In this document: positions 9,624 through 16,934 of the stretch, piece by piece
Numbering within the stretch: the stretch's first letter is position 1
Layout: every line of letters begins with the position of its first letter
Origin: Caldisphaera sp.
GTDB lineage: Archaea > Thermoproteota > Thermoprotei_A > Sulfolobales > Acidilobaceae
Direction of reading: 5' to 3'
Assembly: GCA_049971805.1 (NCBI GenBank)
Contig: JBMFKU010000026.1
Coordinates: 1 to 16,934 of the forward strand
Length of the DNA: 16,934 nt
Program-made: the position numbers and the translations under genes
The notes under the pieces: model-generated
The model's database searches: none
Seen by the model: the letters and a program-made list of their open reading frames with translations, nothing else
What the model was told of the DNA's origin: nothing

Positions 9624-9728
9624 CCCGCCGTAGCTCAGCGGTAGAGCGCCCGGCTGTAGTGAGACAAGGCAGTATCGGCCTTCTTAGCCGATACCGGGTG
9701 GTCCGGGGTTCAATTCCCCGCGGCGGGA
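9624..9728 (+). tRNA. tRNA-Tyr(GUA) with a 33-nt intron at 37/38 (9660-9692); CCA not encoded
   Basis: CCCGCCG TA GCTC AGCGGTA GAGC G CCCGG CTGTAG [intron] A CCGGG TGGTC CGGGG TTCAATT CCCCG CGGCGGG A. C1-G72 and A73 are archaeal Tyr identity elements. Confidence 0.95.
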
Positions 9729-10671: not shown

Positions 10672-11739
10672 TTAGGGTATGACCTCTGTAGAATCAAGAG
10701 TTGGATCGTAATATAAATCATTTATATCAATAACTTTATCCTTTATTAACTCATCTATTTTAGGTATAATAGATAATACGTATTTTATATATTGTTTATT
10801 AACATCATCTACAATTTCAAAACCTTCTTTATCCCAATAAGGTTCCATATAGGCATATAGACATCTCCCCCCACAATATCTCTTAAATTCACAATTTTTG
10901 CAAACATCTGGTAAAGGATCTTGCATCAATTTATACCCGCTATTAACATTACCTAGTACAGACCATTGCTCTCTTACAGCTATTGGACAGGCCAAAATTC
11001 TTCCATCAGATGATACTGTAATTGATTTATATCCAGCACCACAAGGAGAACCTATATATCCGCTAAAATAGTGCGCACTTAATAAGCCTAAAATAGGTAT
11101 AATTTTTATTAATTTTCCTTTCATTGCTTGTCCTAAAAAATAGTTTATTAATTTCTTTAATCCTGGCAAATAGTTTTCATACGCCCACTCCTTAAAATTC
11201 CAAGGTTTAGACCAAATTACATTTAATTGCCAATGGATCTTATCAAATATTTTTAGATCAATTAAATGCATTACATCTAAATAAATGTCTGTATCTTTAG
11301 TTGCTGTCATTCTAGCTATGGTCTCTATTTTGTTATTAATTTCTTTTAGATATGTAGCACTTTTAATTACATTATCATAAACCCCTTTACCTCTATGTTT
11401 ATCAGTTATCTCTTTTCTACCATCTATAGAAAGAAGGGCTACATTTATTTTCTTCCAATAATAATTTGGCAAATTCTTAATTAGTAGACCATTTGTTTGA
11501 ATGCCAAATCTTTTTGCATTAATGTTGTTTAATACATCAATAATGAATTTGGGGTTTAATAGAGGTTCTCCACCATAAAAAATTATTATTGGATTGTTGT
11601 CCTTCTCTATTAATTTTTTTAATTTATTTATATCATAATTAATTTTCCATGGAACTATGTTATTTGGAAAAGATCCTCCACAATAATCACATTTAAGGTT
11701 GCATTGACCAGTTGCGGTTAATATCCACAGCATCCTCAT
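10672..11739 (-). CDS. Radical SAM/SPASM domain protein (AF0577/TIGR04084-like)
   Basis: [30 protein letters not shown] Cys motifs [12 protein letters not shown] and [14 protein letters not shown]. Confidence 0.88.
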
Positions 11740-11785
11740 TTTCCCTGCTATAACTTTAGTAATTAGTAAAAAGCTTTAATAAAAA

Positions 11786-11859
11786 TGGACCGGCCGGGAT
11801 TTGAACCCGGGGCCTCTCGGGTGCAAGCCGAGCGCTCTTCCAGTCTGAGCTACCGGCCC
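11786..11859 (-). tRNA. tRNA-Ala(UGC); CCA not encoded
   Basis: GGGCCGG TA GCTC AGACTGGAA GAGC G CTCGG CTTGCAC CCGAG AGGCC CCGGG TTCAAAT CCCGG CCGGTCC A. G3-U70 identity pair, followed by a T-run, with TTTTTAAG TATA upstream. Confidence 0.97.
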
Positions 11860-11942
11860 ACGCAATAAATTAATTATATCTAGGGACTTAAAAACAATTT
11901 TGTATTTTTATTTTCTCATAAATATAAAAAGTGTTTGATTTT

Positions 11943-12230
11943 ATTTTATAAAATAAATGGCAAGCCTCATCTTTTAAGGCGGGGTAAAGTTTTAAGGTTT
12001 GTTTTAAAAATAATTAGATATGAATAGCCATCAAGGGTATTCTTCACAATATGAGGTAGGCCTCTACTCGTTACCAAATTAAAGAAAAAGGAGGGTGAGA
12101 TTTCTCCCTCAGGTCAAATAAAGATGAGGAGTTGGTAACTTTGCTCTCACATAGGGAGGAATCAGAGTAGCTCCTATAGGTAACCTCAAGATTCGGTAAC
12201 ACTAACCCATCAGGGCAGGAAAGAGATCAG
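11943..12230 (+). mobile_element. Non-autonomous IS200/IS605-family element (SMN1/PATE-like), copy 1
   Basis: Left-end hairpin CAAG-CCTCATCTTTTAAGGCGGGG (11961-11984). Degenerate right-end hairpin ACTAACCCATCAGGGCAGG-AAAGAGA-TCAG ends at 12230. No transposase ORF. The first 159 bp are identical to 16776-16934. Confidence 0.8.
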
Positions 12231-12239
12231 CTAAGCAAA

Positions 12240-12508
12240 ATGAGTATAGCGAGAAAGAGGAAAGTTTGCTTTATGCTAGGGTTTGTTTAAATATAAGTAA
12301 GAAAGTAGACTAAAATAAGTACTTGCAGGAGCAGTTAAGGATTATGATGAGATAATTATCGATGTTGACTCCAAGATAAATACAAAGAGAAAGGACTCCT
12401 TCTAAATCTGCTAAAGATGGTTTTAAATAATAAGGCGTCAAAGATAGTTATAGTTTATCCATATGTTATAGAAGTAGTGAAATAAATAAGATCCCACAAC
12501 AATTAATA
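12240..12508 (+). pseudogene. IS607-family TnpA (serine recombinase) remnant with frameshifts, stops and a deletion
   Basis: Across frames it reads MSIARKRKV / LYARVCLNISKKVD*NKYLQE / VKDYDEIIIDVDSKINTKRK / GLLLNLLKMVLNNKASKIVIVYP..VIEVVK* / KIPQQLI. This is colinear with the Sulfolobales IS607 TnpA pattern RKRKVILYARVS..KYLEEQVKEYD..ITDIGSGLNMKRKGFLKLL.MILNNEVSKV..AYP (recalled, not searched). Confidence 0.8.
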
Positions 12509-12541
12509 ACCTTAAAATTTACTATAATTTTGGTGAATGTG

Positions 12542-16775: not shown

Positions 16776-16934
16776 ATTTTATAAAATAAATGGCAAGCCT
16801 CATCTTTTAAGGCGGGGTAAAGTTTTAAGGTTTGTTTTAAAAATAATTAGATATGAATAGCCATCAAGGGTATTCTTCACAATATGAGGTAGGCCTCTAC
16901 TCGTTACCAAATTAAAGAAAAAGGAGGGTGAGAT
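16776..16934 (+). mobile_element. Non-autonomous IS200/IS605-family element, copy 2 (truncated by the window edge)
   Basis: Identical by eye to 11943-12101 over 159 bp, same orientation, offset 4833 bp. Confidence 0.85.

Follow-up and report, generated by a model that had tools for sequence, protein, structure and literature searches.

A gene-less IS200/IS605-type repeat of Caldisphaera as a probable deletion derivative of a tnpB-only insertion sequence

Can an insertion-sequence relative that encodes no protein serve as a stand-alone gene for a guide RNA? The question is raised by a locus in a Caldisphaera draft genome (assembly G000; 1.52 Mb in 66 contigs, 96.6% complete, 31% GC), where contig C26, analysed here as a window of 16,934 nt, contains a short IS200/IS605-type element with a putative internal promoter and a folded body. 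The original prediction had read this element as an omegaRNA cassette, each copy of which would offer the same scaffold with a different 3′ guide to a TnpB acting in trans. A passage of Meers et al. (PMC10055086) states that PATEs "often encode omegaRNAs", usable by TnpB only in trans, and part of PMC4615843 describes a PATE-derived RNA expressed in Halobacterium. For the Caldisphaera locus, our analysis points to a simpler answer: it is very probably an ordinary non-autonomous IS200/IS605 element (PATE/MITE) left by internal deletion of a tnpB-only (IS1341-type) insertion sequence, and it probably does not work as a guide-RNA cassette.

Boundaries, copies and distribution of the repeat family

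The features of the window on which the analysis rests are the following.

11946–11949, + strand: target/TAM-like tetranucleotide, TTAT in this copy (family consensus TGAT)
11950–12014, + strand: left end, with a subterminal hairpin CCTCATC/GGCGGGG at 11965–11984, followed by the inherited tnpB promoter region
12035–12069, + strand: family-specific 5′ hairpin module, GGGTA...CTTCA / TGAGG...TACTC, from RNAalifold and pair counts; absent from the tnpB parents
12097–12162, + strand: remnant of the first ~28 tnpB codons with a conserved fold (nhmmer model positions 155–210 against the 5′ end of intact tnpB)
12163–12230, + strand: last ~10 tnpB codons and right end (nhmmer model positions 221–291 against the parents' right ends)
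12231–12250, + strand: 3′ flank, CTAAGCAAAATGAGTATAGC, the place that, purely by supposition, a guide would take if a read-through RNA served as omegaRNA
16779–16934, + strand: start of a second element copy (first 156 nt), with 100% identity to 11946–12101 and cut by the contig end

The element occupies 11950–12230 on the forward strand (about 285 bases), with the target-like TTAT at 11946–11949. It belongs to a dispersed repeat: a 318-nt query around it matched 40 places in the assembly, and a profile HMM of 291 positions made from 15 copies gave 55 nhmmer matches at E ≤ 1e-3, 18 of which span at least 250 of the 291 model positions and are treated as full-length copies; many further matches are cut by contig ends. 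Alignment with 60-nt flanks showed that the copies stop matching exactly after TCAG (12227–12230), in agreement with the predicted right boundary, and 21 of 26 right ends carry this motif. At the other end, similarity opens at a 4-nt motif immediately 5′ of AAAATAAA..., and the sequence farther upstream is unrelated among copies. Among 36 left ends, this motif was TGAT in 19, TGAC in eight, TGGT in three, TTAT in three (window copy included) and another tetranucleotide in three.

By analogy with IS200/IS605 biology, the tetranucleotide would lie outside the mobile unit, and the reading of TGAT as flanking target is supported by an apparent 5-nt shift of the left boundary in the TGGT subgroup. 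In this TGGT/GGGT subgroup (C41:5120, C1:29922, C18:4476 and C3:2244 of G000), TGATA directly precedes all three TGGT copies and the sole GGGT copy, which looks as though the boundary had moved by 5 nt and captured the former target motif.

No ORF of at least 50 aa is present within 11739–12530, and a 20-codon ATG frame at 12020 is disrupted by indels in other copies. Terminal inverted repeats are absent, none of the eight inverted repeats in the element connecting both termini, and no target-site duplication was seen in the flanks of the aligned copies. These properties, together with ends that match those of tnpB elements, uphold the assignment as a protein-free IS200/IS605-type element. Among public sequencing runs, no RNA run was found to contain the stretch, and four DNA runs showed no empty insertion site, yielding only contigs stacked on the repeat. 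The first 9 nt of the right flank, CTAAGCAAA, are common to window 12231–12239 and C13:6709–6717, and both copies adjoin a tRNA gene; a longer homology between these two flanks was considered and dropped, as the similarity extends no further.

Pairwise identity among copies has a median of 79.8% (793 HSPs), and the best pairs reach 96% apart from the two copies in the window, which form the only 100% identical pair of the family (156 nt) and are preceded by the same unusual TTAT. This pair may reflect a recent hop over 4.8 kb, and hence an active TnpA missed by the assembly, or equally an assembly effect at the contig end. The median identity of about 80%, the decaying right-end hairpins and the lack of a tnpA or an intact tnpB in the assembly make the family in G000 look largely fossil. 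Of the 41 genomes searched, six including G000 gave a match to the family, which outside G000 was seen only weakly: G002 holds full-length relatives of ~70% identity, and G003, G005, G006 and G036 hold left-end or partial matches.

Descent from tnpB-only elements and anatomy of the element

The element ends were located by nhmmer on tnpB elements of G000, G003, G005, G036 and G141. Against seven parental elements, model positions 3–70 of the element HMM correspond to the left end, 155–210 to the first tnpB codons and 221–291 to the last ~10 codons and right end, the last of these blocks matching all seven parents (E from 1e-8 to 1e-11). Intact parents, which share their ends with the element, are found in the congener G003 and in G141 and carry a tnpB of 456–460 aa without an adjoining tnpA; their relatives are spread across several hot-spring archaeal groups. 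Decayed tnpB elements with the same ends occur in G000 itself, at C6:4414–5075 (both ends plus traces of the zinc-ribbon and RuvC-III motifs), from C18:1376 (the left end, then some 45 N-terminal codons still intact) and at C12:23778–24704. A relationship to tnpA or tnpB loci with shared ends, which the original prediction had left for a later search, is therefore borne out for tnpB through these remnants and the intact genes of G003 and G141, but not for a tnpA or an intact tnpB in G000. Judged by its sequence, the element arose by internal deletion from an insertion sequence of the tnpB-only (IS1341) type, with a 3′ RNA similar to Rfam HgcC/sot0042.

The left end is homologous to the left ends of tnpB elements in G000 (C6:4414 and C18:1376), G005, G036 and G003. 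Both the left-end hairpin and the TTTTAAG at 11990–11996 are present as predicted, the latter within TTTTAAGG (11990–11997) and followed by an A/T block at 12002–12013. In the tnpB remnants of G000, the TTTTAAGG box lies 25 nt upstream of the tnpB ATG, and in the element the box takes the position, downstream of the left-end hairpin, that an A/T box holds in the parents. By this placement, the TTTTAAG box is the inherited position of the tnpB promoter, and the element's promoter is presumed to be active.

Between the promoter and the tnpB remnant, a segment of ~90 nt (12003–12096) has no counterpart in the tnpB parents and contains the 5′ module, the two helices of which are 92.9% and 90.6% paired over 17 copies. 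The module block is also found in the congeners G002 (L032, L038, L041) and G003 (L036), where GCTT/AAGC is replaced by GCGT/ACGC, and at least one compensatory change separates the G000 elements from those of G002 and G003. In the G002 (L041:1496–1921) and G003 (L036) elements the module sits just after the left-end promoter, and this 426-nt G002 element combines it with an HgcC-like RNA.

In the tnpB remnant at 12097–12162, the start codon ATG has become ATT. Its outer helix, in which GATTTCTCCCT (12099–12109) pairs with AGGGAGGAATC (12153–12163), is 97.3% paired in 17 copies and coincides with inverted repeat I3. The deletion junction, GGAAT followed by CAGAGTAGC, lies at 12162/12163. Beyond it, the right part holds a shortened stem A (12167–12184), the arms of a closing helix (about 12189–12194 and 12223–12228) and the TCAG cleavage motif (12227–12230). 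The UUCA-type hairpin of the right end (12206–12215) has decayed, with a family consensus of 6–7 bp, 69.6% pairing over 17 copies and, in the window copy, only CCC/GGG (12206–12208/12213–12215), so that of the right-end hairpin and TCAG originally described for this copy, TCAG stands in full and the hairpin is reduced to three pairs.

The fold of the remnant has a parental counterpart. When 17 parental 5′ regions were folded (21 listed minus four near-duplicates, comprising L100:513–742 and 16 further parental loci), 34 pairs were obtained, 11 of them with a compensatory change. The start-codon region GAUGCUCUCC pairs with GGAGGGCAUC ~80 nt downstream and encloses UCUGGU/ACCAGA and a hairpin GCGGGAG/CUCCCGC. 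This fold, which spans the first ~28 codons, may exert translational control of tnpB. An interpretation of GGAGGG/CCCTCC (12090–12110) as a second copy of the tnpB 5′ hairpin was dropped, because GAGATTTCTCC proved to be the start-codon strand in the 17-sequence parental fold.

The 3′ scaffold and the fold of the copies

The Rfam families HgcC (RF00062) and sot0042 (RF02656) stand for RNAs that, according to part of PMC4615843, tnpB genes of the IS1341 type carry at their 3′ end. Parents of the element score 31.5, 27.3, 20.5 and 19.6 bits against HgcC, all below its gathering score of 50, and at its 3′ end the HgcC consensus closes with the parent family's own right end (…CGcccUUuAgggCGggGAGGAGGUCAG). 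On parent L040, the match to the HgcC model is 111 nt long and reaches to TCAG. The homology of the element begins 78 nt before the end of the parent, which corresponds to the last 68 nt of the element, and HgcC model positions 1 to ~35 are missing, and with them the opening hairpin and the GAUGA linker. By this alignment, the element keeps only these last 68 nt of a parental HgcC-type scaffold of ~111 nt (~60%).

Folding of 33 parental 3′ ends revealed three conserved modules within the last ~90 nt: stem A, with one pair occurring as AU in 24 sequences, UA in six, GU in two and CG in one; the closing helix GACCU/AGGUC, with one pair occurring as UA in 27 and CG in three; and the UUCA hairpin. 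All three are retained in the element, although none of the copies has escaped shortening or breakage of stem A. A stack scan for covarying helices in the same parental region returned only low-complexity purine/pyrimidine matches and was discarded.

No match to HgcC or sot0042 was obtained at E ≤ 10 in any of 17 copies scanned, which comprised 15 of the 18 full G000 copies (that of the window and 14 others) and two of G002. One partial match to the element HMM, at C2:62115–62279, coincides in part with a weak match to HgcC (18.3 bits). Searched against Rfam at E ≤ 10, positions 11900–12300 gave eight chance-level matches, none IS605-related, and at the gathering threshold the whole window gave three tRNAs only. 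A Rfam tRNA at window 9624–9728, not reported by ARAGORN, has 36 extra bases at the anticodon loop, which are probably an intron.

The original prediction had proposed four nested helices for the body of the element. All of them are complementary at their coordinates, but over 17 of the 18 full copies (the remaining one lacked a locus) they show no covariation above shuffles: their 27 pairs are 88.0% paired, a value equalled by 379 of 500 shuffles, and their covariation score is equalled by 386 of 500, with only three pairs changed on both sides. The same arms have other partners, GTTACCAAAT pairing with ATTCGGTAAC and GATTTCTCCCT with AGGGAGGAATC, and the 5′ module competes with proposed helices 1 and 2. 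When the inherited modules are combined into one structure, 88.3% of it is paired over 17 copies, its pairing being equalled by eight of 500 shuffles and its covariation by 17 of 500. It fits the copies better than the proposed helices do, with modest support.

As a single molecule, the 212-nt RNA of the window copy folds at 37 °C with z = −1.35, and 14 of 200 shuffles fold as well. The growth temperature of the organism is presumably ~70–75 °C; at 75 °C, three copies reach no more than −8 to −14 kcal/mol, their z lying between −0.85 and −3.2. The GC content of the element is 0.39–0.42, vs. 0.50–0.54 for the HgcC-like elements described below and 0.67 for a tRNA of G000. Missing T-runs were rejected as a sign of designed read-through, as a run of four or more T occurs in one of 17 copies and 30–67% of shuffling trials contain none at all. 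The body of the element is the tnpB 5′ end plus a family-specific module and is not an omegaRNA scaffold.

Competing explanations, partner proteins and related elements

Searches for proteins that might move or use the element gave little in G000. PF01797, the signature of Y1 TnpA, had no match in this 66-contig draft assembly; it matched in four of 41 genomes searched, and intact Y1 TnpA is encoded in the congeners G001 and G003. An intact TnpB was not found in G000 either: PF07282 gave two fragments, PF01385 none and NF040570 two matches far under cut-off, and an intact congener TnpB used as query returned 11 pieces, seven of them with stops, the longest open frame being 150 aa. At least five G000 contig ends (for example those of C8, C28, C1, C5 and C21) break within tnpB-type elements, so that an intact tnpB or tnpA may have escaped assembly. 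At one contig end, C21:20300–21588, the C-terminal part of another TnpB, with a frameshift, adjoins an N-terminally truncated frame resembling an AMP-dependent synthetase.

Descent by internal deletion from a tnpB-only element very probably explains the family, and established IS200/IS605 biology supplies a route for its spread. A Y1 TnpA acting in trans would recognise the two subterminal hairpins, cut after the left target motif and after TCAG, and excise the top strand as a single-stranded circle, which would be pasted 3′ of another TGAT without leaving a duplication. The promoter and the folds are, on this reading, inherited parts of the parent and no purpose-built RNA gene. Since TCAG closes the element, transcripts reading through it would pick up flanking sequence as their 3′ end, and they would contain only the last 68 nt of the parental scaffold of ~111 nt. 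The outer helix (97%) and the 5′ module (93%) are better kept than neutral decay predicts, so that some selection may have acted on the folding of an RNA or of single-stranded DNA.

The stand-alone cassette of the original prediction, in which the inherited promoter would drive an RNA ending in the right-end module plus 16–20 nt of flank, a TnpB from elsewhere would load it, and each copy would protect its own site or add a guide, appears very improbable to us. It would be in keeping with the promoter position, which is inherited and lies in the best-conserved block of the element, with the presence in the retained 68 nt of stem A, the GACCU/AGGUC closing helix and the UUCA hairpin, which covary in 33 parents, and with a TCAG end next to unrelated flank; precedents exist in the PATEs of PMC10055086 and the Halobacterium PATE RNA of PMC4615843, as far as the relevant passages describe them. 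The scaffold itself argues the other way, since the deletion has taken the first HgcC hairpin and the GAUGA linker, stem A is damaged in all copies, the right-end hairpin is weakly kept and down to 3 bp in the window copy, and none of the 17 copies matches HgcC or sot0042, whereas the parents and the longer gene-less elements do match, if below threshold. The helices put forward for the cassette lack covariation and an intact cognate tnpB was not found in G000, two outcomes that the original prediction itself had named as refuting it. The GC content is also lower than one would expect of a structured RNA in a thermophile; on these grounds we do not follow the omegaRNA reading.

It is very improbable that the copies are instead kept, independently of TnpB, as a domesticated small RNA or a portable promoter that yields a useful non-coding RNA or expression of neighbouring genes. 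This would explain why no parts are better kept than the promoter block, the outer helix and the 5′ module, and why the module is present in two other species, and overexpression of a PATE-derived RNA altered growth in Halobacterium according to part of PMC4615843. All 18 full copies are intergenic. Against this reading, the downstream ORF lies on the same strand in 10 of 17 cases and on the opposite strand in seven, with no bias towards driving a neighbour, and the gap to the adjacent genes ranges broadly, between 11 and 614 nt. The scarcity of T-runs is not significant, and a copy identity of ~80% is typical of decaying repeats. A variant that we regard as very improbable holds that a chimeric transcript, made up of the tnpB promoter, the 5′ module, the fold that sequesters the start codon, the 68-nt right-end module and flank, works as a minimal guide RNA, or else as a decoy, for a TnpB concealed in unassembled repeats or imported by a mobile element; if true, about 20 to 50 copies would constitute a guide bank in a genome whose own nuclease genes have decayed.

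As a deletion derivative, the element resembles the IS200/IS605 PATEs and MITEs of Haloquadratum, Halobacterium (VNG_R0052) and Geobacillus stearothermophilus, which, as portrayed in parts of PMC4615843 and PMC10055086, consist of the fused left and right ends of a tnpB element without any gene, have subterminal hairpins including a UUCA-loop right end, lack inverted repeats and duplications, occur in many copies and are mobilised in trans. It differs from them in carrying ~190 nt of extra body (the tnpB 5′ fold and the module), in retaining ~60% of the parent scaffold and in a host assembly in which neither tnpA nor an intact tnpB was seen. Its last 68 nt are homologous to the HgcC 3′ end, but it is devoid of model positions 1 to ~35 and scores against neither HgcC nor sot0042, the parents themselves reaching 19.6–31.5 bits vs. 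50.

ISC1733 is, we assume, a member of the IS200/IS605/IS607 group. The ~320-bp Sulfolobus SMN1, which relies on the ISC1733 transposase, is by its description in part of PMC3718332 a similar non-autonomous crenarchaeal element; the same passage gives MITEs in general terminal inverted repeats, which the present element lacks. The TGAT of the family resembles the TAM of ISDra2, TTGAT, as given in part of 10.1101/2023.03.06.531077, and a guide would begin right after the right-end cleavage site; ISDra2, however, is an autonomous tnpA–tnpB element with a complete scaffold.

PATE-borne omegaRNAs acting in trans have already been published (PMC10055086), and gene-less IS200/IS605 elements and their transcription have been described (PMC4615843), to the extent covered by the passages cited, and the element is notable only for its composite body and truncated scaffold. 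What the analysis adds is a documented crenarchaeal PATE/MITE family from Caldisphaera with its origin worked out. It also shows that a promoter and a fold in a gene-less IS605 element are no automatic sign of an omegaRNA gene, as the fold here is mostly the tnpB 5′ end and the scaffold is truncated. For annotation, the family explains many contig breaks and intergenic repeats of the G000 draft. More useful leads are the covarying fold over the parental tnpB start codon and several gene-less elements, GC-rich and HgcC-like, of a genome in which no intact tnpB was found.

The latter constitute a second, rarer gene-less IS200/IS605 family in G000, of ~340–385 nt and 50–54% GC, with the following members.

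C28:10396–10779 (L136:1258–1641): longer HgcC-like gene-less element
C18:17480–17815 (L139:1276–1611): longer HgcC-like gene-less element
C18, ~27190–27530, − strand: longer HgcC-like gene-less element
C66:390–517: piece of a longer HgcC-like gene-less element

These elements match the full Rfam models, HgcC with up to 41.8 bits (gathering score 50) and sot0042 with 36 bits, and a fold of five sequences comprises 78 consensus pairs, seven of them with compensatory changes. On such sequence and pairing data, they are better candidates for stand-alone guide RNAs than the element of the window.
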